DNA from: Rotaria sordida
Lineage: Eukaryota
Reading direction: 5' to 3'
DNA: 64,000 nt
Assembly: GCA_905250005.1 (NCBI GenBank)
Contig: CAJNOH010000668.1
Coordinates: 1 to 64,000 of the forward strand
Shown one piece after another: positions 1,901-60,452 of the stretch. The position numbers and the translations under genes were made by a program. Position 1 is the stretch's first letter, and each line of letters starts with the position of its first letter. Below the pieces are notes generated by a model. The model did no database searches. It saw only the letters and a list, made by a program, of their open reading frames with translations, and was not told where the DNA came from.

Positions 1901-4900
1901 ATGAAGCAAACTACGATATCTACTCCATTGCTGTCACCATTCAATGGCAAAACGATTGTACTCGAACTTGGTCGTGAAATAGGTTTCAAAGCTAAACAAG
2001 AACTTATAAATTATTTACGAGAACAAAAAGCATATATTTCATATATTCTTACAGCTAGTGTATGTTATTCTTTCATATGCTACGAACACGCTGCTATTGT
2101 TGACTATTTATTTTTTAGACTGATTATGTTTTAATCACGAATAATGTAGATAGCTACAAGACACGTCGTGCGAAACAACTTGGTTTGCCACTAGTTAATG
2201 TTGAATATGTGTATGAATATCGTCGCTTGCCGCCTGGTCAAACATCGATCGATATAAGTAAATTTATCATCAAGTCAATTGAAGATCAAGAAAATTTTAC
2301 ACAGACTGGTACAATATCCATTACAGGTATATGAATGTCAACTTTTTAAAAATCATGTTGGAGATATTTATTCATTAGGATCTCGAACAAATGCAATCAA
2401 AATCAATAAATTTGATTTAACTAAAATCAAAATATGGAATTCAGACGATATTAATTTACCTCGTTTCGATGAGTTAACTCATTGTGAAATTGGAAAATGG
2501 GCCATTTTTAAAGTACAGTTCTATTCTTTTCTAGCTCTTATTTTTTTCTTATACATCTAATGTTCGTAATAGGAAACCAATGATAATTCAAATGTGTACT
2601 TTGTTCTTGAACTTCAAGTCATTCCTGAACAATACTATGATCGAATAACGAGTGATTATCGATTACGATTTCGTTATGAAAAACAAACTATTGTTAACGA
2701 TGGACAACAGCAAAATAAAAAAGTATTGATACAATATGCATTCAGTGATGATCCAAATGAACAGCAACAATTATTTGCCACGTATTATCATCGAGTAGCT
2801 ACAATGTCACGTGTAACACGAATTCGTGAGATGTTACCTGATAAATTAGGATCAAAATTATTATTACGTGTATGTTAAACGAGAAATAGTTTTTCAACTA
2901 AAAATAATTATTTTTAGTCTTTATTTACTCATCGTATCGATACACAAATACTTGATGAGAATGCATGTCAATTAATTGAATCGATTTGGTTAGAATCAAT
3001 TGGTGATTTGAATAAAATTTTGAGCGTACCACCTGAATCAATTACTCTCAAAACAGTATATTTATCCATTTTTCTATATTTAAATTTATTTTATTCCTTA
3101 TCTATTAAATAGATTATCGAAGCTGAAGCTGCACTACTTGAATTGAAAACGACTAATGATCCTCGTGCTGCACTTCGTTTCTATTCACTTATTCCTCATC
3201 GGTCACAATATACAGTTGATCTAATAAAAAATCGTCGAGTATTAACAGAAAAAATTGATTTATGTCAAGTATGTCTATTTTGTTTAATGATTTAATTTAA
3301 TTGTTCGCGTTCGTTCAGATGCTTCGAGACATGCTTACAGTCAATGAACTAACTAATTGGAATGTTAAAGCACCGATTGAAGCGAAATATCGAGCATTGA
3401 AATGTCACATTGAAACTATTGATAATTCAACACCTGAATTTAATAGTATTGCTGAATTGATTCAATCGTCAACAGATAAGTGAGAACAATTGAAGTTTGA
3501 TTTTATAATGATAACTTTGATTTTTTTATTCATTAGTGGTAAACAAATTGTTATTCATCAAATATTCAATGTAACTAAACAAATCGATGCACTTAATTTT
3601 TGCACATCTCTATCAAATCAACGACAATTATTTCATGGATCAAAATATGCTAATTTTCTTGGAATTCTTTCACGGTAAAACATTTATTTCATTTTCTAAA
3701 TAATATTTATAGTACAATTATGTATATTCAGTGGTTTAGCAATGCCAAAAATGGTAGTTGAAGAATTAGGTGTCGTACGTACTGATATTGGTTGTCTTGG
3801 TTATGGACTTTACTTTTCTGATTCTGCTTCTACATCTTTAAAATATACAACAGCAAGTACAACACGACCTGGTAGACGATTGTTATGTATTTGCCAAGTA
3901 GCACTAGGTGAATCAGCCAATTATTATTCATTTGCACCAACTCTCGTCAAACCTCACGATGGTTTTCATAGTACACATGGAGTCAAAAGAACCGAAGAAA
4001 ACAATTCAATGTTTACCGTAGGTACATTATTAGTAAAAAGAAAGTTTTCGAGTGTCCTACGAGTTAAGAAGATGATATAGGAGAAGATTTCGTACAAGTT
4101 GAAGTAAATACGTAATGAAAATTCCTCCCAGTTTGATATATATATAGAATAGATTTGAAATAAAAATTCGACAATTGATCTCGATTTCATAATTTGTTGT
4201 GTAATTATCAAAATAGGATAATGAATATGCAATCTATCAACTTGATCAACAACGTTTACTCTACATTGTGGAAGTTTCATGGGCACCGAACGATACTCTC
4301 AATATCGAATTTGAACGATTGCCAATTATTCATCATCAACAACATGCACTAAAATTAAGTGAACATGGTAATGATAATTAAATAGTTTTTGTTAAAATGA
4401 AATTCAATTAGATTATTCTGTTACATTCTAGTTGAAGTTCCAATGACAATTGAAGATGAAGTCATTGAAATAGCCGAACAAGACTATGGTTTAATAAATC
4501 CATCATCGGGAAAACTTGTACCACTTAAATCATTTCATATTCGTGCTCAAATTGTTGATACTACAGTTGAGGTAAATATATATATCGATCATTTCTCATG
4601 AAAGTCACACTAAAATTTATCATATTTCTTTTTTTAATATGAAAAAAAAAGGTTGTTCTCTATCAAGTCTATCACAATACGAGTTCGATACCAATTGAAG
4701 CTAAATATGTATTTCCTCTTGATGAAAATTCAACTGTATGTGGTTTCGAAGCACATATCAATAATAAAATTATTAAAGGTGTTGTCAAAGAGAAAGAACA
4801 AGCTAAACAAGAATATCGAGAAGCAATCGAAAAAGGACATGGTGCTTATTTGATGCATCAAGAACAAGCTCAAGTATTCAGTGTAGCTGTTGGTAATTTA

Positions 4901-6884
4901 CCAGCAAACAATGAAGTTATTATTAAAATAACTTATGTTGCCGAATTAGAAATTGAAAATGATGAAATTATATTTCGTCTACCAGCTAAAATGGCATCAT
5001 GGCAATCGAAACAAGCAATTGAAAGTAAAGATCAATCAATCGTACGATCGATTGGTATTATTGATGAAAAAGTTGAATTCAGTTTCAAAGCATCAATTCG
5101 AATGCCATATGAAATAATCAAATTATTTTCACCAACACATCGTCTTCGACGAAAATTAACTGATTGTATAGCTATGATTGAACTTATTGATAATGTCTTA
5201 CTTGATCGAGATTTTGTTCTTTCAATAACACTTCGAAGTGCTAATCTACCTCGAATATCAATTGAAACATTATCATTGGATAATGATGACAATGGAACAA
5301 CGATAGCATCGAAAAATGATGATTCTCAAGCATGTATGCTTACATTTTATCCACGATTTGAAACATTAACAAATTCGAATGAACAAATTGAACTTATTTT
5401 TATTATTGATGTATCCAATTCAATGGATGGTAGTTATGTACAACAAGCTAAACAATTAGCTCATTTATTTCTTACGAATATGAAATTCGATGATAGAAAT
5501 ATATATTTTAATATAGTTACTTTTGGATCAGGTATATAAAATGATAATTGATAGAATTATTCTATTATTCAAATTTGAATTATTTAGATAATGATGAATG
5601 TTTTCCGATTTCAACACCAACAACTAAAGAAAATCTTGATAAAGCTAAACACTTTGTTCTGGTTGATATTTTTTTGTTTTTATTACTATTGAAATATATA
5701 TATTTAACTTATTTTAGCATTCACTTATCCATCGTGGTAATACAGATCTATCTGCTGTTCTTCATCGTTATTCACTATTACCAGCATTACCAACATCGAA
5801 ATTTGGCCGTCAATTTATTATTCTCTCTGATGGACATATTCATGATCTTCAATCGATTCTTGTTCTACTCGAACATCAATCAACTATGCGTCGAGATCGT
5901 ATATTTGCATGTTCAATTGGTAATGTTGCTAACAAACATGGTTTGAAACAATTAGTGAATGGAGCAAGTGGTGGTGGTCTAACAACTGTATTCGATTCGA
6001 ACTATCGATCAAAATGGAAAACAAAAGTATTAAATATTCTCGAACAAGTTCGACAACCATGTGTTACAAATATATCAATTAATTGGCATGGTCATGTAGA
6101 TGAACAACAAAAATTTAATATGCAAGCACCGAAAATAATTCGATCATTATTTAATGGAATGCGACTTAGTGTCTATCGATTTATACAAAATTGTCATAAG
6201 GCCACATTAACAGCTACTATCGATGGACAAGAATTTGTTACAACTGTATTTAGTAGTACAATGACAACGACTAAAGGACGTATCCTACATTGTTTAACAG
6301 CTCGAGCGATTATTGATGATTATGATAATGGATTATTACATGTAGACGAGAGCGAAAATGAACTGATGAAAGTTCAATATAAGCAAGATCTTATTGATCT
6401 AAGTATCAAACATTCAGTCGTTAGTGCATACACTAGTTTTGTTGCTATCGAAGAACGTGATGCTAAAACAGATGTAAAAACTTTTCAACCAGGTTAGTAG
6501 AAAGTTAAATAGAATGTAATTAATTGCTGTCAATATTCTACTTATCTTATAGGCGTTCGTCTTCTTGATGTTATGCTCGATCGAAATATTGACTTATTAC
6601 CATACATAGGATGGGACGGTGATGTGTCAAATTTGGATACAATTAAACAGAAATTAATCGATGAACGTATTCCACTCGAAAGTGCATCGATTCAAAGCAA
6701 AAAAGAATCGATAGTCGATATTGAAAAACTTTGTGAAAAAATTTCCTATCGAGCAGGTGGTGATGCGAAATTTGATATGATGATGACTATCATACGTACA
6801 TATCGTTATGCATTGAATGAACATGAAAAAGCAAATGAAATTGAAAATAAAATGCGAAATGGTATGTTATTCAATCATAAATAA
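1901..6884 (+). CDS. PARP4-like: Multi-exon vault poly(ADP-ribose) polymerase (PARP4/vPARP)-like gene, ~18+ short exons. Domain order: BRCT (1901-2329), WGR-like (2382-2876), PARP regulatory helical domain (2918-3480), PARP catalytic (3536-4368), VIT (4431-~4900), vWA (5380-6494), C-terminal exon (6552-6884).
   Basis: Translated exons carry recognisable motifs. BRCT: GKTIVLELG...ITNNVDSYKTRRAKQLGLPLVNVEYV. PARP catalytic: H-G-S (LFHGSKYANFLGILSR), GLAMPK...GYGLYFSDSASTS, LLCICQVALGE, and the catalytic-Glu motif DNEYAIYQ. VIT: LVPLKSFHIRAQIVDTTVEVVLYQVYHN. vWA MIDAS-like: IFIIDVSNSMDG. Exons are joined by gtaagt/gtatgt...ag introns of ~40-120 bp. Exact exon boundaries were not all resolved. 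Confidence 0.8.
3536..4368 (+). CDS. PARP catalytic-domain exons (sub-feature of the PARP4-like gene).
   Basis: Exons encoding SGKQIVIHQIFNVT...LFHGSKYANFLGILSR, GLAMPKMVVEELGVVRTDIGCLGYGLYFSDSASTSLKYT...LLCICQVALGESANYY and DNEYAIYQLDQQRLLYIVEVSW. These match the H-Y-E ADP-ribosyltransferase signature of the PARP family. Confidence 0.8.
4431..6494 (+). CDS. VIT and von Willebrand A domain exons (sub-feature of the PARP4-like gene). Includes ORFs 4850-5539 and 5886-6497.
   Basis: VIT-like segment EVPMTIEDEVIEIAEQDYGLINPSSGKLVPLKSFHIRAQIVDTTVE...VFPLDENSTVCGFEAHINNKIIKGVVKEKEQAKQEYREAIEKGHGAYL. vWA: ELIFIIDVSNSMDG...LSDGHIHD...GASGGGLTT. This is the PARP4-type architecture. Confidence 0.75.
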
Positions 6885-24335: not shown

Positions 24336-25286
24336 ATGGCATCATCTATTATTTCATCATTTGCTTTTGCTGAACAACAAATAACCATATATTTGGGCAT
24401 ATTCATTCTCTTCGGAGGTGTCCTTGGTGGACTTCTCAATATCACTGTTTTTCTGAGTCTCCAAACGTTTCGACAGAGTTCATGTGCATTTTATTTAACT
24501 GTGATGTCAGTTGTCAACATTGGTCAATTGATTACAGGTCTGCTCAGTCGTATAATGATCACTGGATTCGGCATTGACTGGACCCAAATGTCTCTGTTCT
24601 ACTGTAAAATTCGCTCGTACTGCATTATAACCTCTGCACTGATCTCCTTGAGTTGTTTTTGTTTGGCAACAATTGATCAATACTGGGCCACTTGCTCTTG
24701 TCTCCGATGGCAACGGTGGAGTAATATCAAGCTAGCTCGTCAACTGTCAGCAATCACTGTTCTCATTTGGATTCTTTTCAATATTCCATATTTCATTTAT
24801 TCCAACCATATTGTGTCAGCTACAACGGGCCGAGTGACTTGTCAGATTACAAATAATGTCTTTCAACAGTTCTCAACCTATGGAATAAATGTCACTTTTA
24901 CAAGAATTTTGCCTGTCAGTATATCATTCTTGTTAGGAGTGTTGGCCTATCGCAATGTGGAACAACTTGCTTATCGAACAGTGCCGATTGTTCGACGTGA
25001 GTTAGACAAACAATTGACAGTGATGGTTCTTGTGCAAGTTGTCGTTACTTTCTTTACAATTGTTCCATATAGCATTATAAATATTCTATTAACGATTTCT
25101 AACCTCACAACAGATCCGATCATTAGAGCGGAGCTTCAGTTCATATCTACTTTGTTCATGTGCATATTTTACATGAATTTTGCGGTAAGGATACGTATAT
25201 TATGGAGTCATCTGAAAAGTGAACTTGTGTTTAGAGTCCATTCTTCATTTATTTTTGTGTGTCAGATCGATTTCGTCGACAACTGA
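24336..25286 (+). CDS. Seven-transmembrane rhodopsin-like G-protein-coupled receptor. Essentially a single exon, with a possible short 3' intron at ~25186.
   Basis: 316-aa ORF with seven hydrophobic helices. TM1 is followed by GGLLNITVFLSL, TM3 ends ...LATIDQYWA (DRY-like position), and a basic third intracellular loop reads RNVEQLAYRTVPIVRRELDKQLTVM. The spacing matches class-A GPCRs. Confidence 0.65.
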   Translation: MASSIISSFAFAEQQITIYLGIFILFGGVLGGLLNITVFLSLQTFRQSSCAFYLTVMSVVNIGQLITGLLSRIMITGFGIDWTQMSLFYCKIRSYCIITSALISLSCFCLATIDQYWATCSCLRWQRWSNIKLARQLSAITVLIWILFNIPYFIYSNHIVSATTGRVTCQITNNVFQQFSTYGINVTFTRILPVSISFLLGVLAYRNVEQLAYRTVPIVRRELDKQLTVMVLVQVVVTFFTIVPYSIINILLTISNLTTDPIIRAELQFISTLFMCIFYMNFAVRIRILWSHLKSELVFRVHSSFIFVCQIDFVDN

Positions 25287-27129
25287 GATATGTGGTCTTC
25301 GAAATTCATCTCCAAAAATATCGACGACAAGAAATTGTTATAAATCAAGGCACCCCAGAAAATGTGTGAACGTCGCTTAGAAAATCTTTCATAACAATTG
25401 AAAACAGCACAGTTGTTTTTTTGTTGTAATTGTATTAAAGAAATTTATTTGTAATTTGTCGTCTATCAGTGATCAATAAATATCTCTATGTTCGACTTAG
25501 AAGAAAAGTAGACTTTAGATTTCTTCTGTAATCTCTGTAACAAAAAAATTTTTACGCTCCGACAAAAATCTTCGATTATCAACAGAAATATACATGCAAA
25601 CATGTTTTATATGAGAGAATTTACGACGTGAAACTCTGAACATCCTAGGTGTCTTCGGGTAAAATGATGTTCAAGCGCTGCTTTCTTACATTTACCTAAA
25701 AACAATGCCTACAAATGGCCATCCAATATGCGTTTTTTTTTTCTGCTGAAGGTGTGTAAAAACAGCGTTTATCAAGATCCTGTAATTTAAGGGAACCTGA
25801 ATATTTTTGTCTCATTTACAATACGTCCAAGCTAGACAACAATGACCAGACAAATTGTCTAAAAATGTTCGGTCGCTAGTAATCTAACTGATGTTGTGTA
25901 AAGATGTTCAACTATTTCTGTTTCTTTAGATTGTTCGGTGGATTGAAAACCAATCTCTTCAGGTACTCGTTTTGTCAAAAGAGATATAATAGAAGCGGTT
26001 GAGGTTTTTTTTAAGGCAAACTATATGAAAATGTTTAGGTTATGTAAATTTACACTATAATCGACACTCATATGGCCTTTACACAAAGAGAAAAATATAT
26101 TCTGTTTTTTTCCTTTCTACGTTCAAGTGTAGCAGCAAGCCTTGACTGTACTATACGTTGAGATCAATTATAGCTCTCTTTTCAGTAAATATGACACAAT
26201 CTCACAGTGTCAAATAAAAATCATATGTAAACAATTCCAGGTTTCATCTTTTCTGAGTTAAGAACAAGTTAAGAAAATGATAAAAGATCTCACTGTTTAA
26301 GATCTATGTGTCAATCATATCTCGGTCCCAGTACGCCATGAGCCCGAGTCCTTTTGGGTTTTTCTTAGTCTCAGTGAGCCCTACTTGTAGCCAAAATATG
26401 GAGTCAAACGGCGTTGGACAGTTGGATATGTTTTCTCGTTAACCAGTTCGAGCAATGAGAACATCTCGAACTGATTTATCGACTAACACAATACGACGAA
26501 CGGCTTTTGACTTTAAGTATGTAAATCTTTTTCACTTCTTCTATTATTCAAAGAAAATCTTGAAATCATAAAACTATTTTGTCACCTTAAATTTTTATGA
26601 AATAACCAATGTTTTTACTTTGTCCACTTTTAGATGATTATTTGACCAATAGTCGAAACGCGTCGTATGGTGCTTTGAATCTATTCGATGAAAACTCACC
26701 ATCACACCTTCACCCTTACCATAAAAGACAAGTGTTGAAAGAAATAGCCAATTTGGGGTTGAAGACATGTTTTTTCCTTCAACATGCTTCTTCGAAACTT
26801 TCAGCGTGCCCTAACAACTTTTTAGAGAAATGAGAACGATTTACCGTTCAATGCATCATCATAGAGACAAAATATGAGAGAATCAGCATTAAAAGCCTAT
26901 AATTTGATCTAGTCAAAAAATATATACTCCTATTTTAGTCAATGAGGATTAACGCCAAAAACATCAACGAGACTTGTAAAATAAAGACATAGAAAGAGTA
27001 TAAAATGCTCATTTTATTTAATGCGAAAAACATATTATAAACTTGTTTTATTTTAAAGAAAAATTGTTTGAAAAGTGCTGCATTATTTTTGCAAAATATT
27101 GCATTAATACCAAGTCAATTATGAACATT

Positions 27130-30100
27130 ATCGGTACACAAACAAGACTTCTGTTCAACTCTTCCGCTCACCTCCAACCAAACATTACTACTCGCTCTTA
27201 TCATCGAACTCCACATCACAAACAAACATCCACCAAGACACTTCTGTTCGTCCCTTTTGCTCACTTTGAACCATACCTTGCCACTCCCTCTCGTCATCGC
27301 ATACAACGTCGCAAAGGAACATTCATTATCAGACTTCTGTTCACCTAGTTTGCCAACTTCCAACCAAACGCTGCCACTCACTCTCATCATCGGGCATTAC
27401 ATCATAAATGCACATGCATAATGATACTTTTGTTCACCTTTTTTGCTCATTTCCAACTAAACGTTGTCACTCGCTCTCATTATCTAATATTACACCACAA
27501 AGGAACATTCATAATGATATTTGTGTTCACCTATTTTACTCAATTCAAACCCAACGTTGTCACTTCCACTCATCATCAAACATCACATCACAATCAAACA
27601 TTGATAAGCAGAATTCTATTCACCTTTTTTGCTCACATTGAGTCAAACATTCCCAATCACTCTCATCATCGTACATCATATCACCAACAAACATTCATAA
27701 TGATACTTTTGTTTACCTCTTTTGCTCATTTCGAACCAAACATTGCCGTTCACTTTCATCATCGAACATCACACTACAAATGAATATTACTCATAACACT
27801 TCAGTTCGCCTCTTTTGCTCACTTCGAACCAAACATTGCCATTCACTCTCATGATCGAACATCACATTACAAACGAATATTACTCATAAGACTTCAGTTC
27901 ACCTCTTTTGCTTATTTCGAACCAAACATTCCTATTCACTCTCATCATGGACCATCACATCACAATCGAATATTCATAACCAGAACTCTTTTCCCCTCTT
28001 TTACTCAATTCGACGCAAATGTTGCCACTCAGTGTCATCAACGAACATCACAGCACAACCGAACATTCATTATCAGACTTCTGTTCACCTCTTTTGCTTA
28101 CTTCAAGCCAAACGTTGCCACTCACTCTTATCATCTAACATCGCCTCACAAACGAACATTCATAAGCAGAATTCAGTTCACCTCATTTGCTCACTTCAAA
28201 CCAAACGTCACCGCTCTCTCTCATCATCGAACATCACACCATAAACGGACATTCTTCACCAGGCTTTTGTTCACCTCTTTTCCTCACTTCAAACCAAATG
28301 TTGCCACTCATTCTCATTATCGAACACCACACTACAAACGAACATTACTCAAGATACTTCCGTTCACCTCTTTTGCTCACTTAGAATCAAACCTTGTCAC
28401 TCTCTCTCATCATCGAACACCACATCACAAACGAACATTCATTATCAGAATTCTGTTCAACTAGTTTGGTCACTTGAAACCGAACGTTGTCACTCACTCT
28501 CATCATCGAACATTACATCATAAATGAACATTCATAATGATACTTCTGTCCATCTCTTTTGTTCACTTTGAATCAAACCTTGCCATTCACTCATCATGGA
28601 ACATCACATTGCAAATGAACATCCATAAAAAGGCTTCTGTTCACCTAGTTTGTTCACTTCGAATTGAACGTTGTCACTCATTCTCATCATCAAACATTAC
28701 ATCTTAAACGAACATTCATAATGATACTTTTGTTCACCTCTTTTGCTCATTTCGAACCAAACGTTGGCACTCACTCATCATCGAATATCACATCACAAAC
28801 GAACATTCAGCAATATATTTCTGTTCACCTCTTTTGCTCACTTCGAACTAAATATTGCCATTCACTCTCATCATGGAACATCACATCACAAACGAACATT
28901 CAAAAGCAGAATTTTCTTCATCTGTTTTGCTCACTTTGAACCAAACGTTGCCATTCACTGTCATCATCGAGCATCACATCGCAAACAGACATGCATAAGC
29001 AGAATTCTGTTCACCTCTTTTGCTCACTTCGAACTAAACATTGCCATCCACTCTCATCATCGAACATCACATCACAAACGATCATGCAGAAGCAGAATTC
29101 TGTTTACCTCTTTTGCTTACTTCGAGCCAAATGTTGCCACTCACTCATCATCGAATATCACATCAGAAACGAACATTCCTCAAGATACTTCTGTTCACCT
29201 AGTTTGCTCATTGCGAACCAAAGGTTGCTATTCACTCTCATCATTGAACGTCACATCACAATCGAACATTCATTATCAGAATTTTGTTCGCCTCTTTTAC
29301 TCACTCCGAACGAAACGTTTTCACTCACTCTCATCATCGAACATCACGTCACAAACGAACATTCATTATCAGATTTCTGTTCACCCCTTTTGCTCAGCCT
29401 GAACCAAACTTTGCCAGTCACTCTCATCATCGAATATCACATCATAACCAGACATTCATCACCAGACTTCTGTTCACTTCTTTTTCTCACTTCGAACCAA
29501 ATGTTGCCACTCATTGTCATCATCAAACATCACATCACAAACGAACATTCATTATCAGATTTCGGTTCACCTCTTTTACTCACTGCAAACCAAACATTGC
29601 CACTCACTCTCGTCAACGAACAAGACACCAGAAACGAAGATTCATCAATATACTTTTGTTCACTTCTTTTGCTCATTTCGAACCAAATGTTGCCACTCGC
29701 TGTGATCATCGAACATCACATCATAAACAAACATTCATGAACATACTGCTGTTCACCTTTTTTTACTCACTTCGAACCGAACGTTGTCACTCAATCTCAT
29801 CATCGAACATCACATCGCAAACGAACATTCCTTACAATACTTCTCTTCACTTCTCTTGCTCATTTCGAACCAAACATTGTCACTCACTCGCATCATCGAA
29901 AATCACGCCACAAACGAATATTACTCAAGATACTTGTATTCACCTAATTTGCTCACTTTGAATCATAGATTGCCACTCACTCATCATGTAATATCACATC
30001 ACAAACGAATATCCATAAAAAGACTTCTGTTCGCCTCTTTTGCTTGCTTCGAATGAAACCTTGCCAGTCACTCATCATCGAGCATCACATCACAAACGAA

Positions 30101-39099: not shown

Positions 39100-40773
39100 A
39101 TGATATATTTTGTAATATCCATAATTATTGGAATTATTTCGTATATAATCTACAAGAGATACAAAAACTCATTGAAGTCTCCTTCTACCACTACTCAGTA
39201 TGATCATGCCATAATTCTTGGAGGGAGCATTGGAGGAATCGTTACTGCAGCTTATTTATCTAAATATTTTAAACGAATAACTATTATTGAATCAGATGAT
39301 GTACTAAATGATATATTTATGAAATCTACACCTAGCGAAATATTAGATTATCGATGTCGACTTGAAAATCCAACATCATTAGGACGTTCAGGTGTTAGTC
39401 AAATATATCAATTACATGGACTTCAGGCTGAAGGTTATAAAATATTACAAGAATTATTTACTAATATAAAAGACAAATTATTCAATGAATATGGTGTTCG
39501 TACTTATTCAACAAAAAACGAGATCAAAGTAGCAATTGATGGTGTAGTCTTAAATCAATATTTAACCAAAGATATTGATTGGTTAGGTATTGATCGTTTT
39601 ACATTAGAAATAATTTTAAGAAAAGAATTCTGTTTGAAATTCAATAATCAAATTGAATGGAAATGTAATAGTAGAGTAATGAAATTAATTGTTAATCAAT
39701 CATCAAATATTGTTAAAGGTGTAAAATATCGATCAAAGAAAAATATCGATTCATCATCATTATTTGATATCTATGGAGATTTTATTATTGATTGTACTGG
39801 TCACAATACATCATCATCTAAATGGTTAAAAGAGAGTTTGAATTTAATTGTACCAACTGTACAAATACATTTTGGTGGTGGTGCTGTTACATTTATTGGT
39901 GAAAGATTTCGAACCGGTAATCTAACATTCGATTCAGCGGCTGTAATTGGTGTCATTGCTAATCCTCCGAAGAAAAATACTAGTTTTATTCTAAGTCCAG
40001 TGCGACAAATCAATACAACTGATCAAAATTCATTAGGAATATTAACAGCATGTGCTATAACCTGTGTTAATTCCGAATATCCACCTAATGATTCATATGA
40101 AAACTTATTAGAATGGACAAAAGAAAATCTAGATCCAGAATATTTTACGGTTATAAAATCAATAAAAATTTCTAGTCCAATAATTCCAAATCGTCATGCA
40201 ATTGATGATCGAAAGTATGTCGAAGTACTCGGTAAAAAATGGCCTCAAAATTATGTATTAATAGGTGATGCTATGTGTACATTTAATCCACAATATGCAC
40301 AAGGTATGACACATGCATGTAGACAGGCAAGAGAATTAGGAAAAATCTTTGGCGAAAATTGTCATAAATTAAAAGATATTTCTCATATTTTTAATCGTCG
40401 TGCTTCAAAAATTACTGAAGAATGTTGGCTTGCTTCGACTGTAAATGATTGGAAAATACCAACATTAAAAGTAATTGAAACAAATAAAAATGGTCAAGTG
40501 AAAATTTATCAAAGAGGTTATCATTCGGATATAACTAACAATGATGAACCACGAACACCTTTAAAAATACGATTTATGCAATGGTATAATTATTGGTTTT
40601 TTCAATGTGCATCGAAATCTGAACAATTAGCTACAGATTTCCTATTTGTTGTCAATCAATCGAGCAATCCATTAATATTAATGAAACCTACAACTTTTTT
40701 TAGAGTTATTCGTATGGCATTCATGAATTATTTAAAGGAGAAAGGTCTTTTTGGTAGAAGATCGACTTCATAG
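39100..40773 (+). CDS. FAD-dependent monooxygenase (class A flavoprotein hydroxylase / halogenase-like fold) with an N-terminal transmembrane anchor. Single exon, 557 aa.
   Basis: N-terminal helix MIYFVISIIIGIISYIIY. FAD-binding Rossmann GxGxxG: AIILGGSIGGIVTAAYLS. Second FAD motif YVLIGDAMCTFNPQYAQGMTHA (the GDAxH/NPxxGxGmn consensus of PHBH-family monooxygenases and flavin halogenases). The ORF is intronless, unlike neighbouring metazoan-type genes, and is bounded by telomeric-repeat islands at 37182-37222 and 41761-41822. Confidence 0.8.
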   Translation: MIYFVISIIIGIISYIIYKRYKNSLKSPSTTTQYDHAIILGGSIGGIVTAAYLSKYFKRITIIESDDVLNDIFMKSTPSEILDYRCRLENPTSLGRSGVSQIYQLHGLQAEGYKILQELFTNIKDKLFNEYGVRTYSTKNEIKVAIDGVVLNQYLTKDIDWLGIDRFTLEIILRKEFCLKFNNQIEWKCNSRVMKLIVNQSSNIVKGVKYRSKKNIDSSSLFDIYGDFIIDCTGHNTSSSKWLKESLNLIVPTVQIHFGGGAVTFIGERFRTGNLTFDSAAVIGVIANPPKKNTSFILSPVRQINTTDQNSLGILTACAITCVNSEYPPNDSYENLLEWTKENLDPEYFTVIKSIKISSPIIPNRHAIDDRKYVEVLGKKWPQNYVLIGDAMCTFNPQYAQGMTHACRQARELGKIFGENCHKLKDISHIFNRRASKITEECWLASTVNDWKIPTLKVIETNKNGQVKIYQRGYHSDITNNDEPRTPLKIRFMQWYNYWFFQCASKSEQLATDFLFVVNQSSNPLILMKPTTFFRVIRMAFMNYLKEKGLFGRRSTS

Positions 40774-44324: not shown

Positions 44325-47300
44325 ATGAATATCGAGATGAATCCTTCTCATACGAAACCAAGTTTTTGGTATTGTGATGTATGCAAGCGTAATTTCGATC
44401 ATGGGACGTTTCGTTACAACTGTATCGTGTGTCCCGATTATGACCAATGTAAGGAATGTACAGCGACGATGTGCCCACCACATCCTCACTCTTTAGTTCT
44501 CGAGTTGGCTTTTGGTGATGGAGAAAATACAACTTCCAATGGGAGAACTATGGCATCTGCAATTGAAGCAGCGATAGAGATCTATTGTGATCGTCAATGT
44601 CTGGGAGTACGAGACTTCGATAAAGATAATCCCGAACACTATGCCAATACCTACTCATGGCAAACTTACAAGACAGTGGGAGATCGGTCGATAAATTTTG
44701 GCCATGGACTACGACGTTTGATCGAACCACGTGATTATGTTGGTATTTGCGCATCGAGTCGACCCGAATGGGTTATATCAGACTTTGCATGCATGTTACA
44801 AAATTTTATTGGTGTACCGATATATTGTCTTTTGAATGATCGTGATACTGCTTTTATCGTTAATAACACGAATATATCCTTGATCGTTTGTGACAAAGAG
44901 ATGCTACCGAAATTTATTCGACTACGCTCAGAGTGTCCATCACTCCGTTATCTCGTTTGCATGGAACCAATTCTTCATACGACTACAGGTAGGAATAGAT
45001 ACCATTCAAATTTCATGAGCTCTTTTAAGGGTCATCTAAAAAGTTTTCTTGGCCAGATTCTTCAATTTATCATGAATCTTGCTAGTTCTAGAATATTACT
45101 GATATTCAATGAAAAATCATCCTTTCTTCGTTCATTTTGATCTATGAAAATCACATTGATTGTATCAATTTATTTTGTTGTAGACACGAACAGTAATGAA
45201 TTGTCGAATCAATGTTCCACCGGTTCTTATCAGTCGTTCTTGAATTTTGATAAATACAGTGAAGTACCGAAGAAAAAAGATGGTCTTTCGATTCACTACA
45301 TTGGTGATATCGAAAAAATGGGCTCTTGTAAACGATACAATTATGTCCCTATCGAGCCGAATGATATTCTCACCATCATTTATACAAGTGGTAGCTCCGG
45401 CTTCCCGAAAGGAGTCATGATTTCTGACAGTGCTTTGAGAAGTCTTTTTTCAGAGGAACTTTCACCATCGACTGGCGAACAAGTGACGTTCTCCTATCAA
45501 CCACTTGCATGGTATGGTGGACGAAATAACTTGATTGGAACGTTTCTTCTTGGAGGATGTGCTGGATTCTTCACAGGCAATCCATCTCGGCTGATGGAAG
45601 AGTTGGCTTTGGTAAGACCGATGGTTTTTCCTGCTCCACCAAGTATTTGGAATAAAATTTATTCCGAATTTAAATCAGCTCTTGCATTGACTATGGTCGC
45701 TGATTCACAACAACATGCTGAAGTAGAAGAAGAGCTTCTTCGACAGTTCTCAAAATTAATTCCATCAAGGTGTAATACGATCGCTATCGTCGGTGCCCAA
45801 ATCAGTCCGTTAGTACTCGACTTTATGCACAAATGCTTTCGACACTGTCAAATCGAAGATGGTTATGGAATCACAGAATGTGGAGGTGTAGCATTCAACA
45901 ATCGTTTCGATCCAACTGTTATCTATCGACTTGAATCAGTTCCTGAAATGAACTTTACACTTGAAGATCAACCTTTCCCACGCGGTGAACTTTTAACAAA
46001 AACACGTCAAATGTTTTCCGGATATGTCAATAATCCGACCGAAACACGAGCAGCATTGACCGATGACGGTTTCTTTCGTACTGGCGATATTGTTGAACTA
46101 CGTCAAATCCCAGATAGACCACCTTATGTCTATATAATTGATCGCAAGAAGAATTTCTTCAAACTTTCCAACGGACAATTTGTGTCTCCTGAGTATCTTC
46201 AGGGTATCCTCACTCGAAGTGCTTTCATCGAACAGATCTTCATTCATGGTGATCTGTATGAAGACAGTGTCACTGCTGTTATTGTACCCAATCGAGATCA
46301 CGCTCAAGCATTTGCCATTGAGAACAATATAACGTCGCTCGAATCGGATCCGAAATTTTACGACGCAATCATGCGTGATTTGCATGAAATTGGTACCAAG
46401 GAATCACTTCGAAAGCATGAAATTCCATCACGAATAATTATTGATTTCGAACGATTCACCGTCGAAAATGGATTGCTCACTTCATCCTTGAAGCCTTGTC
46501 GTCCCAAATTGATTGCTCATTATGCAAAGCGATTGAAGACAACAAACACATTGGAACAACGGTTGAAAACCATCATCGAAACAGTCACAGGTCAATCGTT
46601 GACGATCAATGATCATGTCAACTTTCTAGCCACCGGTGGTAACTCTTTGGCAGCCGTACGTTTATCACGAATGGTTCGCGAGGATCTCGGAATCACTCTG
46701 CCACTCAATATTCTTTTCCAATCCGAGATGAATCTCAAACGTTTGACAGAGTTTGCTCAAAATCCTTCATTGATTCAACACGATTCGATCGTCTCGCGAC
46801 TCCTACATGATGCCGAACTTGATCTCAATATTACAATTGGCAAACCAAAAATACTTGCTAGCTTCCCATCGATGGTTTTCGTGACGGGTACAACAGGATT
46901 TGTTGGTGGTTTCTTATTATTCGAAATGTTGAATAGATATCCGATTGATTGTAAATTCATTTGTCTCGTTCGATGTGAACAGTCGACGAATCCATTAGAT
47001 CGTATTCAAAAGAATATGGTTTTTCTTCATCTATGGCAAGACCATTTTCGAGAACGTATCGTACCGCTACGAGGCGATCTTTCTCAGACTCAGTTTGGAC
47101 TAGATGACAAGACTTATGCATCAATTGCAGCGCAAATTGACCTCATTTTTCATTGTGGTGCCACTGTCAATTTCCTATTACCCTATAGCCAACTTTATGG
47201 TTCGAACGTTTGTGGTACTCGAGAAATCATTCGTCTTGCAACTTATCCGTCCAACTGTATTCCTGTACAATATATATCGACAATCAGTGTTCTACCACCG

Positions 47301-47927
47301 GGTATTGTCGAGGAAATGCATATTGACGCTATCACACCACATTGTCTGACCACTGGTTATGGACAGAGTAAATGGGTGGCAGAGAAACTTATGAGAAAAG
47401 CTAGCTGTTTTGGTCTACCAGTTGTCATCTATCGGCTTGGCTCAATGTGCGCTAGCGTGAATAGTGGTGCCTGTAATCCACTCGATCTTCATACAATATT
47501 CATCATTGCCATATTGAAGACAGGTTCTTATCCGACCGAAGCGCTCAGCATGAGGCTCGACACTTTACCAGTGAATTTCGCTGCTAGCAATATCGTTCGT
47601 CTGAGTCTCGTTCGACCTGATGTGTATGGAAATGTCTATCATGTTGTTCATCCTGATGGTGGAGTGACATTTCAGAATATCGTTACAAGTGCGAAATTGT
47701 ATGGTGTAAAAGTAAACGATGTTCCTTTCGAACAATGGCGATCAACGATGCGAGGCCATTCATTTGAATCAGCCGACGAGTTGCTATTCGAGTTGATTTT
47801 CGGAAAACGATTAATATTATCGGCCAAACAATTTTACAGTATTGTATCTCCACTCAACATTCCGGCTATGGACAACGACTATACAAATAAATGGTTAGCA
47901 TTTATAATGCAAAATGTTCGACATTGA
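44325..47927 (+). CDS. NRPS-like carboxylic-acid/acyl reductase: N-terminal ZZ-type zinc finger, adenylation (AMP-binding, ANL), thiolation (PCP), and thioester reductase (R) domain. Two exons (44325-44988, 45184-47927; intron 44989-45183), ~1135 aa.
   Basis: ZZ: YCDVCKRNFDHGTFRYNCIVCPDYDQCKECTATMCPPHPHSL. A-domain cores: A3 IIYTSGSSGFPKGVMIS, A5 EDGYGITECGG, A7 FFRTGDIVEL, A8 IDRKKNFFKLSNGQFVSPEYLQ, A10 LLTSSLKPCRPK. T domain 4'-PP site: NFLATGGNSLAAVRLSRMV. R domain: VFVTGTTGFVGGFLLFEML (TGxTGFLG NAD(P) motif) and GYGQSKWVAEKL (YxxxK). Intron: donor ACAG|gtagga at 44988/44989, acceptor ttgttgtag|AC at 45183/45184, phase-consistent (…HTTT-D-TNSNE…). ORF 45144's MKITLIV start is therefore not a real start. 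Confidence 0.9.
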
Positions 47928-48251
47928 TGACATGTCATCATTTTCTATAATCATGTGAATCATTTTTGTAATATGTGCGGATGTTACACAAATAATAATA
48001 TATTCGGATAGAGAAACAACTTTCATTGTTTCAGTACAAGATAAAATTAATAGTAGAAAGTATATCCTGGAATTTTTTGGACGGTCAAAGAGATATTTAT
48101 TAAAAAGGATGAGTTGCATAAAAGCTAATATTGATTTGCACATACAACAAAAACAAGATCATTTTCGTTTCTTGTATTGTTTTGTGTACATTGTTTTGAC
48201 CAACTAAATACAAGTCAAATAACTTGTACAAAGAACTGGTTGCTTTGTTTG

Positions 48252-48614
48252 TAGGGGTAGGGTGGAGTGCGGTTGTGGTTGCGGGTGTGGATATCGGTGT
48301 GTGGGTGTGGATGTGGATGAAGGAAGTACCTATACCCACACCCACACCTACCCATACACATCCACGCCCACACCCACATGCACACCCACACCCCACACCC
48401 AGTGTGGATATGGGATGTAGGTGTGAGGTAGAACAAAATCAACCAACTCAGGTACATACTTACAGCGACAGCGCCAACCACACCATAAATATTCCTAATA
48501 TCCAAATTCAAGTTTAAGTCAATGCGACATGATTGCCATCTTGAGGGTGAGTGTGGATGTGGGTGGATGGGTGTACGATTGTTTTCAACAACACCCATAA
48601 TCACCCACACCCGC
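48252..48614. repeat. Largest telomeric-repeat island with the block order G, C, G ... G, C. It sits immediately 3' of the A-T-R gene. The overlapping ORFs (48100-48396, 48215-48610, 48224-48517) are artefacts.
   Basis: gtaggggtagggtggagtgcggttgtggttgcgggtgtggatatcggtgtgtgggtgtggatgtgg / cccacacccacacctacccatacacatccacgcccacacccacatgcacacccacaccccacaccc / gtgtggatatgggatgtaggtgtgaggt / gggtgagtgtggatgtgggtggatgggtg / cacccataatcacccacacccgc. Confidence 0.9.
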
Positions 48615-51136: not shown

Positions 51137-53422
51137 ATGTCGAAGATATTGTCATTATCGACTGAAAATATTTCAATCCCGTCACAACATCTACCTCTAT
51201 CTGCAATTAATGGGGACAACAAAGAAAATACAACTCTTATTTGGTTTGATCCAAACATTGGTTCATGCGAAGATATCAAGATTACGATGAACCGACTTCG
51301 AAAAATAAGTGATTATACTGTGTTTCATACCGAACTTGAATTCTGTGTCACTTTGATCAAATCAATTCAAAATGGAAAAGTATTCTTGATTACATCTGGA
51401 AAACGTGCCTCAGAACTCTTGCCACACATTGTAAATCTTCGTCAAATCGATTCAATCTTCATTTATTGCACAAAGTCAAGTGAATATGAGCATTTGATGA
51501 AGACCTATTCGAAAATAGTTGGTATCTATGTGGATATCGAGTCACTGTGTGCATCCATTAGAGAACAAGTTGATCTAGTTGACAAGCAACTGGAAACATT
51601 TAGTTTCTTTGATCAACATCAGAAGTCGACCAAAGATCTATCGAAAGAATCAGCCGAATTTCTGTGGTTTCAGCTGTTCAGTCATGTAATCTTAAGTCTT
51701 CCACACGATCAACAAGCTAAGTGCCAAATGCTCAATTTCTGTCGTCAGTATTATCGTGGAAATAATAAGCAACAGAAACTGATTGATGACTTTGAACAAA
51801 ATTATCAGCCTGAGTTAGCTATTCAGTGGTATTCAAAACAATCTTTCATCTACAAACTAGTTAACAAAGCTTTACGAAGTGAAGATATCGATCAACTTCA
51901 CACATTTCGATTTTTTATTGGAGATCTCTCCCACAGTCTTAAACGTGAGCATCAAAAGATTGCTCGATCTGGAGAAAAAAACTTGACTCTTTATCGAGGA
52001 TTGAGGCTATCAAATGAAGAACTCAACAAACTCAAAGAAAATCAAGGAAAACTCATCTCGACTAATGGATTTTTATCAACTAGTCGACGTCGATCACTAG
52101 CGGTTGCCTTTGCAACCAAACACACGACACGCACTGATGCTTTACCCATTCTCTTTCAAATCGAGTACAATGTGAACAAACTAGATGATTCTGTTATCTG
52201 TGCAGATATTGCTGAATTCAGTGATTATCCAAAAGAAGAAGAAGTTCTCTTTGATTTTAATGCTGTATTTCAAATCGAAAATATTCAGCGTGATGCACAA
52301 CTATGGATCATTAAAATGAGTGCATCAAGAGATGGACAAACCATTACACACGACTACATCGATTTAATGCGTCGTGAAACCGACGAAAAAACAGTGCCCA
52401 TCATGTTTGGAAGATTAATGTGTCAAATGGGTCAGTACGACAAATCTTTCAAATATTTTGAACAGCTCTTACTTCACCCAAATGGCGAAGATCTAGCATC
52501 AATCGAATTCAATATGGGTCGAACGCTTCATGACAAAGGTGAACGGAAATCAGCTCTGAAATACTATGACAGTGCTTACAACCGAATGATGAATGTCGAT
52601 CCACCTCGAATCAAAGACTCAGCATCTGTGCTCAACAATATTGGAATTGTTCTTCAGCAGCGTGAAAAATATGAAGAAGCATTGGATTTCCATCAAAGAG
52701 CACTCAAAATACGAAAGAAATATTTTCCCGTCGAACATCCTGACATTGCTCTCAGTTTAAAAAATATTGGTCCTGTGCTCAAGGAACAAGGAAAATACAA
52801 CGAAGCTCTCGACTACTATCAGCAAGCACTTAAAATACAAGAACAATATTATCCGCGCAGTCATCCAATCATTGCTTCTAGTCTCATTATCATTGGTAAT
52901 GTTTGTCGTAGTCAAGAAAAATTCGATGAAGCCCTTGAGTTATATCAACGAGCCTTGAAAATGCTACAAGAATGTTATCCAACAGACCATCCCGACATTG
53001 CATGGAGTCTCAGCAGCATTGGTTCAATCTTTCAAAATCGACAGGAGTACCAGAAAGCCCTCGATATGTATCAACAAGCTCTCACCATGAAAGAGAAATA
53101 TTATCCTACAGATCATGTCTCTATTGCATGGAGTTGCAACGATATTGGATCTATCTTACAAGCTCAAGGAAAATACGATGAAGCCCTCAACTATCATCAA
53201 AGAGCACTCCAAATATTAGAAAAGCACTATCCTGCAACTCATGTCAATATCGCTATTAGTCTAAGAAATATTGGAGAGAGTTACGAAAATCTAAATAATT
53301 CAAAGTTGGCGCTCAATTTTTACAAAAAAGCATTGGTTATTTATAAGAAAAGTCTGCCTGTGGATGATCCTGTGCGAAAGAAAACTGAAGAAACTATTGG
53401 TCGACTCTCTTCCTTGGAATGA
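51137..53422 (+). CDS. ADP-ribosyltransferase (R-S-E clade, arginine-ART-like) fused to ~8 kinesin-light-chain-type TPR repeats, preceded by an uncharacterised ~170-aa N-terminal domain. Single exon, 761 aa.
   Basis: ART triad with proper spacing: TLYRGLRLS (R), GFLSTSRRRS (S-T-S), DYPKEEEVLFDF (E-x-E). TPR_10/12-like 42-aa repeats: EALDFHQRALKIRKKYFPVEHPDIALSLKNIGPVLKEQGKYNEALDYYQQALKIQEQYYPRSHPIIASSLIIIGNV... repeated through ...ALNFYKKALVIYKKSLPVDDPV. Confidence 0.8.
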   Translation: MSKILSLSTENISIPSQHLPLSAINGDNKENTTLIWFDPNIGSCEDIKITMNRLRKISDYTVFHTELEFCVTLIKSIQNGKVFLITSGKRASELLPHIVNLRQIDSIFIYCTKSSEYEHLMKTYSKIVGIYVDIESLCASIREQVDLVDKQLETFSFFDQHQKSTKDLSKESAEFLWFQLFSHVILSLPHDQQAKCQMLNFCRQYYRGNNKQQKLIDDFEQNYQPELAIQWYSKQSFIYKLVNKALRSEDIDQLHTFRFFIGDLSHSLKREHQKIARSGEKNLTLYRGLRLSNEELNKLKENQGKLISTNGFLSTSRRRSLAVAFATKHTTRTDALPILFQIEYNVNKLDDSVICADIAEFSDYPKEEEVLFDFNAVFQIENIQRDAQLWIIKMSASRDGQTITHDYIDLMRRETDEKTVPIMFGRLMCQMGQYDKSFKYFEQLLLHPNGEDLASIEFNMGRTLHDKGERKSALKYYDSAYNRMMNVDPPRIKDSASVLNNIGIVLQQREKYEEALDFHQRALKIRKKYFPVEHPDIALSLKNIGPVLKEQGKYNEALDYYQQALKIQEQYYPRSHPIIASSLIIIGNVCRSQEKFDEALELYQRALKMLQECYPTDHPDIAWSLSSIGSIFQNRQEYQKALDMYQQALTMKEKYYPTDHVSIAWSCNDIGSILQAQGKYDEALNYHQRALQILEKHYPATHVNIAISLRNIGESYENLNNSKLALNFYKKALVIYKKSLPVDDPVRKKTEETIGRLSSLE

Positions 53423-59616: not shown

Positions 59617-60452
59617 CTACAAGATGACGGATGTGGTATATGATAAACTATAGATAAGTTTCGTTAGTTGAAAAGCAAAGTAATATTCGAGGGAACTTAA
59701 GTATTGAACAGACAAGAAGCCCAATATATAAACTGTAGCTAATGGTGTAGAAAGTAAAATATGGGAAATCACTTGGACAAATAGCATGCGAGCAAGTTGA
59801 TGTTCAGTACGACGGAATCGTGTAGATGTAATAGGAACAACACGAACTGCCTTTGCATTGTATATGGTCAGGATACCGAAGATTAGCATTAGAAATGGAG
59901 GAATAAAGCTTAAGAGAACTGCTTGAATAATCGGATATATACGCCTATAAACTGTTGTTGGTAAAATGCAGCATAGAATCGCTTGACCTGGTTGTATATT
60001 GAGCAGTACCAGAGAACTAATGAAGAAAAGAGCGATAAAGGTGAAGACAAATAAAATAGACCATCGAGCAACAGACAAATTGCTAAGATGTCGTCGTTGA
60101 AAATTTGATGAACTAACACAATATCGATCGATCAAAGCTAGTACAATTAAATACGGTGACACTACGAGAGATACTGTTGAATATAGAGAATAACTTTACA
60201 CCATAATTGAGAATTGCTAGTTGGATCTATTTGATAGCTAAGGGATAAAAGATTAAACATGAGAAGAAAGATTGAGAAGAACAAATTGTTACTAGCAAGT
60301 GCGAGAAAATAATGAGAACATGGATGATTGTACAATACAGATTTTCTAAGCACAATTATATTGAGCAGATTTCCGATGATTCCGATCACCATACTGGGAT
60401 GTACGGTTATTCGTGTGAGTAGAGCAATGAGTTGAACATATGAATTCATCAT
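59617..60452 (-). pseudogene. Rhodopsin-like GPCR split into two overlapping ORFs by a 1-nt frameshift at ~60162, within TM3 just before the DRY motif. Possible pseudogene or sequencing error.
   Basis: ORF 60162-60452: MMNSYVQLIALLTRITVHPSMVIGIIGNLLNIIVLRKS...WCKVILYIQQYLS*. ORF 59617-60162: (V)SPYLIVLALIDRYCVSS...AVRVVPITSTRFRRTEHQLARMLFVQVISHILLSTPLATVY... The conserved GNxxN in TM1, C in ECL1, DRY after TM3 and a basic ICL3 are all present. The two frames abut at 60162. Confidence 0.6.

Follow-up and report, generated by a model that had tools for sequence, protein, structure and literature searches.

Gene structure at the locus

The stretch of DNA analyzed here, referred to below as the window, comprises positions 1 to 64,000 of contig CAJNOH010000668.1 from the bdelloid rotifer Rotaria sordida (GenBank assembly GCA_905250005.1). 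At 44325–47927 of the forward strand it contains a gene for a protein with a ZZ-type zinc finger followed by adenylation (A), thiolation (T) and thioester reductase (R) domains, an architecture denoted below as ZZ-A-T-R. The gene model was obtained from the window sequence, the list of its open reading frames (ORFs) and in-silico splicing. It consists of two exons separated by a single intron, both exons and the intron being placed as in the initial annotation of this stretch. The spliced coding sequence (CDS) of 3408 nt encodes 1135 amino acids (aa) and has one terminal stop. The coordinates of all features are given in Table 1.

The GC content of the intron is 29%, vs 41% in the CDS, and the intron contains stops in all three frames. 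It splits codon 222 (GAC, Asp, cut after the G) at the beginning of a variable loop. The intron was initially placed about 100 residues downstream of the ZZ finger; the actual distance is about 165 residues, since the finger ends at aa 55–60. The loop itself (aa 219–253, window positions 44983–45275) varies within the family, is predicted to be disordered and has a predicted local distance difference test (pLDDT) score below 50 (25–32) in the AlphaFold model.

The closest match to the window gene comes from Rotaria sp. Silwood1, with approximately 92% nucleotide identity. In the two closest relatives (loci L002 and L004) codon 1 encodes Ile and codon 5 encodes Met; hence, the conserved start is probably Met5, with the ATG at 44337.

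Table 1. Features of the ZZ-A-T-R gene, of the remainder of the window, and of related loci with divided gene models. Positions refer to the window unless another locus is named.
Feature	Position	Strand	Details
Exon 1	44325..44988	+	N-terminus, ZZ finger, first ~150 residues of the A domain
Intron (spliceosomal, the only one)	44989..45183	+	GT..AG, 195 nt, phase 1
Exon 2	45184..47927	+	Remainder of the A domain, T domain, R domain; stop codon 47925–47927
ZZ-type zinc finger	44358..44504	+	aa 12–60; ligand pattern, Pfam, profile, AlphaFold2 model
Adenylation (ANL) domain	44532..46529, intron inside	+	aa ~70–670; Pfam AMP-binding aa 103–502, E 4e-49
Thiolation/carrier (peptidyl carrier protein, PCP) domain	46557..46751	+	aa 680–744; Pfam PP-binding, E 8.5e-10
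Thioester reductase (R) domain	46875..47795	+	aa 786–1092; Pfam NAD_binding_4 aa 788–1024, E 4e-53
Split paralog models	L005: 5210–5884 and 6001–8661		Broken at the conserved phase-1 intron
Split paralog models	L004: 9267–9983 and 10001–12727		Broken at the conserved phase-1 intron
VIT/VWA fragment	4850–5539		
Rhodopsin-family G-protein-coupled receptor (GPCR; 7tm_1)	24336–25286	+	ORF
Flavin-dependent monooxygenase	39100–40773	+	Intron-less 557-aa ORF, 3.5 kb upstream of the ZZ-A-T-R gene; weak Pfam Trp_halogenase match
ADP-ribosyltransferase–tetratricopeptide repeat (ART-TPR) gene	51137–53422	+	761-aa ORF; NAD:arginine ADP-ribosyltransferase at aa 224–397 and a long TPR array
Rhodopsin-family GPCR (7tm_1)	59617–60162	-	ORF

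The N-terminal zinc finger

Judged by its ligand pattern, profile matches and modeled fold, the N-terminal domain is a true ZZ finger, as had been claimed. The eight ligands of the CxxC...CxxC...CxxC...HxH pattern (C17, C20, C33, C36, C42, C45, H53 and H55) have the spacing expected from ZZ geometry. They are invariant in 39/39 full-length homologs with 26–66% identity, the remaining positions of the domain being variable in the same set. By analogy, C17, C20, C42 and C45 are predicted to bind the first zinc ion (Zn1), and C33, C36, H53 and H55, the second one (Zn2).

The Pfam ZZ model (PF00569, gathering cut-off 21.4 bits) matches aa 17–50. Its score is 20.1 bits in the full-length protein, slightly under the cut-off, and 25.3 bits in the isolated N-terminal fragment of 75 aa, over the cut-off. 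Almost all family N-termini (37 of 39) match the model at E ≤ 0.01, the best E being 1.3e-9. When a profile of the family N-termini was compared with PDB, the best match was the ZZ domain of Nbr1 from S. pombe (E 4e-12); ZZ domains of CBP/p300, HERC2, BIG, p62, KCMF1 and MIB1 were matched as well. The HxH end of the window domain is the same as in CBP/p300.

In the AlphaFold2 model of the N-terminus the pLDDT averages 91–94 in blocks spanning aa 11–60. The top approximately 40 matches in the Foldseek search of PDB with this model were exclusively ZZ domains. The ZZ domain of p300 (6ds6) is superposed on the model at 1.2 Å over 45 columns with a target-normalized template modeling (TM) score of about 0.7, and the ZZ domains of CBP and p62 are superposed on it as well.

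Catalytic domains and enzyme class

Initially, the remainder of the protein was described as an A-T-R reductase resembling nonribosomal peptide synthetases (NRPS). The set of A, T and R domains is indeed complete, and every motif quoted in that description was located in the protein. In the A domain these are A3 (YTSGSSGFPKG, aa 288–298), A5 (YGITE, 449–453), A7 (FRTGD, 519–523), A8 (540–555) and A10 (Lys658). The predicted phosphopantetheine attachment site is Ser709 within GGNSL (706–710; nucleotides 46644–46646). The R domain contains the NADPH loop TGTTGFVGG (789–797), Ser920/Thr921, and YGQSK (947–951) with Tyr947 and Lys951. Residues K297, E453, D523, R542, K658, S709, G790/G793/G796, Y947 and K951 are invariant in 30 homologs.

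The NRPS-like label, in contrast, is loose. The amino-acid adenylation model TIGR01733 scores 71 bits with the cut-off of 317, and the Lys2 model TIGR03443 scores 183 bits vs the cut-off of 1030 and covers only the T-R part (aa 673–1092). No condensation domain was found by Pfam in the window protein. By sequence, the A domain is nearest to eukaryotic long-chain acyl-CoA synthetases (ACSLs), with approximately 30–33% identity, which makes an amino acid less likely as the substrate than a fatty acid or another carboxylic acid.

The best model for the protein is the NCBIfam carboxylic acid reductase (CAR) family NF041592, with 449.7 bits over aa 70–1055, which is far below its equivalog cut-off of 1300 bits; therefore the substrate and the product are not confidently transferable from CARs. 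The thioester reductase model TIGR01746 (aa 786–1083) scores 235.3 bits and exceeds its cut-off of 213.35. The best PDB relatives by both sequence and fold are bacterial CARs from Nocardia, Segniliparus and Mycobacterium (5mso, 5msc, 5msp, 5mss and 6oz1). The full-length AlphaFold model has the mean pLDDT of 80.8. Foldseek found bacterial CAR A domains to be the nearest to the A domain (target-normalized TM 0.75–0.77) and the R domain of MxaA to match the R domain (0.84–0.85). By sequence, the R domain is about equally near to MxaA, a four-electron alcohol-forming reductase, and to CAR R domains, so that an alcohol product may also be considered.

Taken together, the family models and the predicted fold assign the catalytic core to the CAR/FadD9 type, its A domain resembling acyl-CoA synthetases; it is neither an amino-acid NRPS nor Lys2. 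In terms of model scores, the window protein does not rank as an equivalog of bacterial CARs; it is a distant relative with their architecture.

From its homology to bacterial CAR/FadD9, we infer the catalytic mechanism to be that of CAR. The A domain would use ATP to adenylate a carboxylic acid, most likely a fatty acid or some other acid that is not an amino acid. The acyl group would then be transferred to the phosphopantetheine arm on Ser709, which would require prior priming by a phosphopantetheinyl transferase. Finally, the R domain, which is of the short-chain dehydrogenase/reductase (SDR) type with the Tyr947/Lys951 pair, would carry out the NADPH-dependent reductive release of the product, which is probably an aldehyde.

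Paralogs and integrity of the fused gene

The ZZ finger and the A-T-R enzyme are translationally fused, as was initially proposed. The first line of evidence is a paralog (P0008, 59% identity by BLASTP) encoded by one uninterrupted, intron-less ZZ-A-T-R ORF of 1107 aa in a 9-kb contig (L001). This contig, found in Logan, was considered as a possible transcript. Given its length and several genes on both strands, it looks genomic, and thus demonstrates an intron-less paralog rather than splicing. Many ZZ-bearing products of 1080–1130 aa are also found in metagenome assemblies from ENA and JGI; each of them presumably represents a single ORF, assuming that the gene callers used there do not predict splicing.

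The second line of evidence is the intron. Models of approximately 887 aa lacking the ZZ finger proved to be truncations: the ZZ exon lies just upstream of them in L002/L003 (Rotaria sp. Silwood1), L004 and L005/L006. At all these loci a GT..AG phase-1 intron resides in the homologous codon. Its length is approximately 262 nt in L002/L003, 66 nt in L004 and 100 nt in L005/L006, and the intron sequences are unrelated. Hence the splice sites and the phase are kept across loci with 56–93% protein identity, while the length and the sequence of the intron diverge.

Third, the spliced CDS is intact and has exactly 3408 nt in the window, L002 and L004. The ratio of nonsynonymous to synonymous substitution rates (dN/dS) equals 0.20–0.21 for the whole CDS, 0.14–0.31 for the A, T and R parts, and 0.17–0.36 for the ZZ finger in comparisons with close relatives. 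According to these values, the whole protein including the ZZ finger is under purifying selection. On the evidence of the reading frames and substitution rates, the gene is intact and selectively maintained.

Gene callers, including the NCBI annotation, also produce split models, that is, a 224–238-aa "ZZ + AMP-binding" product and a product of approximately 886–908 aa. This is how related genes of Rotaria sp. Silwood1 are annotated, and one could assume two separate genes encoding a ZZ protein of approximately 224 aa and a reductase of approximately 886 aa. This assumption agrees with public annotations and with the output of prokaryote-style gene callers, and the splice at the window locus is predicted from genomic sequence. 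However, exon 1 carries approximately 150 residues of the N-terminal subdomain of the A domain, which would be non-functional alone and which exon 2 lacks, so that neither of the split products could function on its own. Moreover, the splice sites and phase are conserved against the background of the diverging intron, the intron-less paralogs are read through, and the models from Adineta vaga and UniProt are full-length. We therefore consider two separate genes highly improbable. Many database entries of approximately 887 aa look devoid of the ZZ finger because the split models place it in a separate "protein".

Since some paralogs are single ZZ-A-T-R ORFs and others keep the same phase-1 intron, the fusion, as seen in these loci, is independent of the predicted splice. 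One family member from Adineta steineri (P0012, 1754 aa) has ankyrin repeats added to ZZ-A-T-R, which may reflect a further fusion or the merging of gene models.

Distribution of the family

The search among 5.8 billion proteins yielded a large family with 41–93% identity whose named sources are only bdelloids (Adineta, Rotaria, Philodina and Didymodactylos). Thus the fusion is present in many copies in other bdelloids, where the initial annotation proposed to look for it. At least seven paralogs from Adineta vaga are among the listed matches. Many bdelloid family members have a precomputed PF00569 match in the databases. According to the initial annotation, no A-T-R enzymes are known to have a ZZ finger; this holds for the searchable literature, in which no paper was found, and fails for sequence databases.

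In the second search, a profile of 30 family members was compared with 1.84 billion representative proteins. Many non-bdelloid matches align from profile positions 4–12, that is, with the ZZ finger included. A pattern search found the N-terminal Cys/His ladder of the ZZ finger in 32 of 145 newly returned top matches. Named proteins with the ZZ-A-T-R architecture come from transcriptome assemblies of Cavostelium apophysatum (EP01114_P024190), Stenamoeba stenopodia and Clastostelium recurvatum, as well as from Pelomyxa schiedti (KAH3744291), Anaeramoeba ignava (KAJ5070375) and A. flamelloides (KAJ3452360). In five of these six proteins the Pfam ZZ model scores at or above the cut-off. Relatives lacking the ZZ finger occur in Balamuthia, Acytostelium, Thecamonas and one bacterial clade. 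Another homolog search, with protist ZZ-CARs as the profile, gave mainly acyl-CoA synthetases and bdelloid copies, and left the taxonomic range as it was.

The Cavostelium protein is colinear with aa 13–1077 of the window protein, from the first cysteine of the ZZ finger through the R domain, with 35.8% identity. In bacterial relatives the aligned part begins no earlier than aa 65–83 of the window protein, and the identity is 27–28%. A neighbor-joining tree was built from 884 columns of the A-T-R part with the ZZ finger left out and 100 bootstraps. On this tree bdelloids together with a basal relative (P0121) form a branch with 100% bootstrap support, and the Cavostelium protein is their sister (91%). 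We looked for a ZZ exon upstream of P0121 (locus L007) and found none.

Several distant homologs (P0125, P0129, P0131, P0134, P0172 and P0188), both Protostelium proteins among them, have lost the second CxxC pair and kept the remaining domain and the fusion.

Origin of the fusion

The initial annotation suggested that a foreign catalytic core had been given a eukaryotic targeting or docking module. If this had happened in the rotifer lineage, the animal would first have received an A-T-R core of bacterial or other foreign origin, to which exon shuffling would then have attached a targeting module, namely a ZZ exon of the host. Indeed, an intron separates the ZZ exon from most of the enzyme, and ZZ domains are typically eukaryotic and absent from bacterial CARs. 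However, the intron lies within the A domain rather than between the modules, and intron-less paralogs exist. More importantly, the identical colinear fusion is found in Amoebozoa and Anaeramoeba, the ZZ-bearing Cavostelium protein groups as sister to bdelloids when the ZZ finger is left out of the tree, and the motif ELAYG at the junction following the finger is common to bdelloids and Cavostelium. The amoebozoan sequences might have been rotifer contaminants; this was ruled out by their 25–36% identity to the window protein. Given all this, exon shuffling in the rotifer is very unlikely and can be regarded as largely refuted.

The colinear ZZ-A-T-R proteins of protists and the position of Cavostelium argue that the fusion is older than the rotifer family. 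In other words, according to alignments and the tree, the fusion predates the rotifer gene, came as a unit and was not assembled in the rotifer. In the preferred scenario, an amoeba-like eukaryote was the source from which the fused gene was acquired whole. This scenario is favored because the named matches include no animals other than bdelloids. The acquisition would have been followed by expansion in bdelloids, leading to at least seven paralogs in Adineta vaga, and one bdelloid subfamily would then have gained the intron.

The alternative to acquisition is vertical inheritance, that is, an ancient eukaryotic ZZ-CAR kept by bdelloids and some protists and lost in other sampled animals. The scatter of ZZ-A-T-R proteins and their ZZ-less relatives over Amoebozoa, Anaeramoeba and Thecamonas is what one would expect of an old eukaryotic family, and the intron and the host-like AT-rich context of the gene also agree with vertical descent. 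On the other hand, the best matches among the named ones include no other animal, and the bdelloid clade joins one particular amoebozoan sequence (91% bootstrap) instead of lying outside Amoebozoa. In addition, there is no synteny with close relatives beyond the gene itself, and gene acquisition is known to be unusually frequent in bdelloids (PMC11258130, PMC10531068). We regard vertical inheritance as unlikely, though clearly less so than exon shuffling in the rotifer.

Thus, our overall reading is that the window gene encodes a maintained bdelloid CAR-type reductase with a ZZ finger that may serve as a docking module, and that it was acquired as a fused gene from an amoeba-like eukaryote and then expanded. 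We believe this account to be probable, and several points weigh against it. The gene could also, with lower probability, have descended vertically with many losses. In the NCBI annotation of Rotaria sp. Silwood1, related genes are broken at the intron, each yielding two models, and the exon 1–exon 2 join at the window locus is predicted from genomic sequence. The phylogeny relies on a distance tree and sparse sampling. Names are available for only 30 of the 150 representatives, so an animal homolog may be among the others. The loss of the second CxxC pair, and hence of one zinc site, in some amoebozoan homologs suggests that the ZZ finger is dispensable or decaying in at least some lineages. 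Finally, for the enzyme itself, the NF041592 score falls short of the equivalog cut-off and the R domain resembles MxaA as much as CARs.

Possible role of the ZZ finger

In alignments with ZZ domains from PDB, residues D18, D38 and D40 of the window protein occupy the positions at which p62, p300 and HERC2 bind the N-terminal amine of the ligand (D129/D147/D149 in p62). They are largely kept in the family, D40 being present in at least 90% of homologs. This retention is consistent with ligand binding and is no proof of it, as such residues are typical of ZZ domains generally. By analogy with known ZZ domains, we give about an even chance to the ZZ finger being a built-in protein-docking module, possibly one that reads N-termini, which would couple the reductase to a partner or a location.

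Alternatively, the ZZ finger could be purely structural: stabilized by zinc, it would cap the N-terminal lobe of the A domain and have no ligand of its own. In the full-length AlphaFold2 model the ZZ finger passes into the A domain without a linker of low confidence (mean pLDDT 83–91 over aa 11–100). The junction motif ELAYG, conserved in bdelloids and the Cavostelium homolog, suggests a fixed position of the finger on the A domain. The amoebozoan homologs that have lost one zinc site and still keep the domain also fit a structural cap. The retention of D18, D38 and D40, given the ligand role of these positions in p62, p300 and HERC2, and purifying selection on the ZZ finger similar to that on the catalytic domains speak for a ligand, and yet both are compatible with a structural role as well. 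We hold the purely structural role to be possible, if somewhat doubtful.

A more specific version of docking may be imagined, in which the ZZ finger captures the N-terminal amine of a protein or peptide beside the reductase, and the nascent aldehyde is delivered to it as an imine, resulting in reductive N-terminal alkylation or lipidation. We attach very little probability to this idea. If it were true, ZZ-CARs would be protein- or peptide-directed modifying enzymes and not plain metabolic reductases, and the bdelloid expansion would mirror diversification of the targets or acids.

Genomic surroundings

The gene resides in an AT-rich region, and homology with the closest related loci ends approximately 700 bp upstream and 300 bp downstream of it. 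In particular, homology with L002 ends at 48238, where repeats start, approximately 300 bp past the stop codon. These are degenerate G-rich runs (GTGTGG/GGGTGT) followed by their C-rich complement (ACCCAC, approximately 11 copies), which form an inverted pair at 48260–48401 and 48545–48610. They resemble the bdelloid telomeric repeat TGTGGG.

The flavin-dependent monooxygenase encoded upstream is similar to bacterial polyether epoxidases MonCI and Lsd18 and may be another acquired gene. A conserved biosynthetic cluster formed by the monooxygenase and the reductase was considered and found to be unsupported, as homology ends within the above limits and the neighbors of related loci differ. The monooxygenase is thus probably not conserved beside the reductase.

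The two GPCR ORFs in the window (Table 1) suggest that the acquired-looking genes are surrounded by ordinary animal genes. The region 26001–30000 has the GC skew of −0.30 to −0.49, and three ORFs in different frames overlap at 28743–29961, which suggests a C-rich low-complexity or repeat block.

Significance

In the searchable literature we found no description of a ZZ domain combined with an adenylation or thioester-reductase domain, or of CARs in bdelloids or amoebae, and no mention of the ZZ-A-T-R architecture in papers on NRPS genes of bdelloids and other animals. The screen of bdelloids for nonribosomal peptide and polyketide synthases missed the ZZ-CAR family because it required a condensation domain (PMC11258130).

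The domain architecture and distribution described above indicate a CAR-type reductase with an ancestral ZZ finger that is common to amoebae and has expanded in bdelloids. This is a class of eukaryotic CARs with an integral ZZ finger, present in Amoebozoa, Anaeramoeba and bdelloids and, as far as the literature could be searched, undescribed. CARs are in demand as biocatalysts, and the types known so far are bacterial and fungal. To these the ZZ-CAR clade adds dozens of diverse sequences that bear a new accessory domain. In bdelloids, the clade represents a probable case of gene acquisition by an animal from another eukaryote with subsequent large expansion. The ZZ domain, hitherto seen in scaffolds and in enzymes of ubiquitin and acetyl transfer, is now found on a small-molecule enzyme. 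The public gene models split at the intron conceal it in many copies.

Comparison with known systems

The ZZ-A-T-R proteins of Amoebozoa and Anaeramoeba have the identical colinear four-domain architecture at 25–36% identity to the window protein. They differ in having a longer N-terminal extension ahead of the ZZ finger, and in some of them (Protostelium) the second zinc site is degenerate. No published function was found for these protist proteins.

ACSLs, the nearest to the A domain by sequence, use free CoA as the acyl acceptor and are devoid of carrier and reductase domains. The A-T-R logic and a similar T-R part are found in fungal Lys2 (alpha-aminoadipate reductase) and in NRPS-like enzymes, whereas the A domain of the window protein is not of the amino-acid-activating type.

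Bacterial CAR/FadD9 enzymes from Nocardia iowensis, Segniliparus rugosus and Mycobacterium marinum have in common with the window protein the A-T-R order, the ANL motifs, the carrier Ser and the SDR Tyr/Lys pair. By analogy, the same chemistry is expected, in which ATP and NADPH are consumed in converting an acid into an aldehyde via a phosphopantetheinyl thioester. The identity of the solved bacterial CARs to the window protein in structural alignments is 23–25%. The bacterial enzymes lack the ZZ finger, whereas the window protein is eukaryotic, is encoded by an intron-bearing gene and belongs to a large paralogous family.

The ZZ domains of p62/SQSTM1, CBP/p300, HERC2, Nbr1, BIG and KCMF1 have the same fold with the C4–C2H2 cross-brace, and their acidic "D...DYD" residues are kept in the window ZZ finger. 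Those domains recognize protein N-termini and are parts of scaffolds, E3 ligases and acetyltransferases, whereas the window ZZ finger is placed on a small-molecule reductase.

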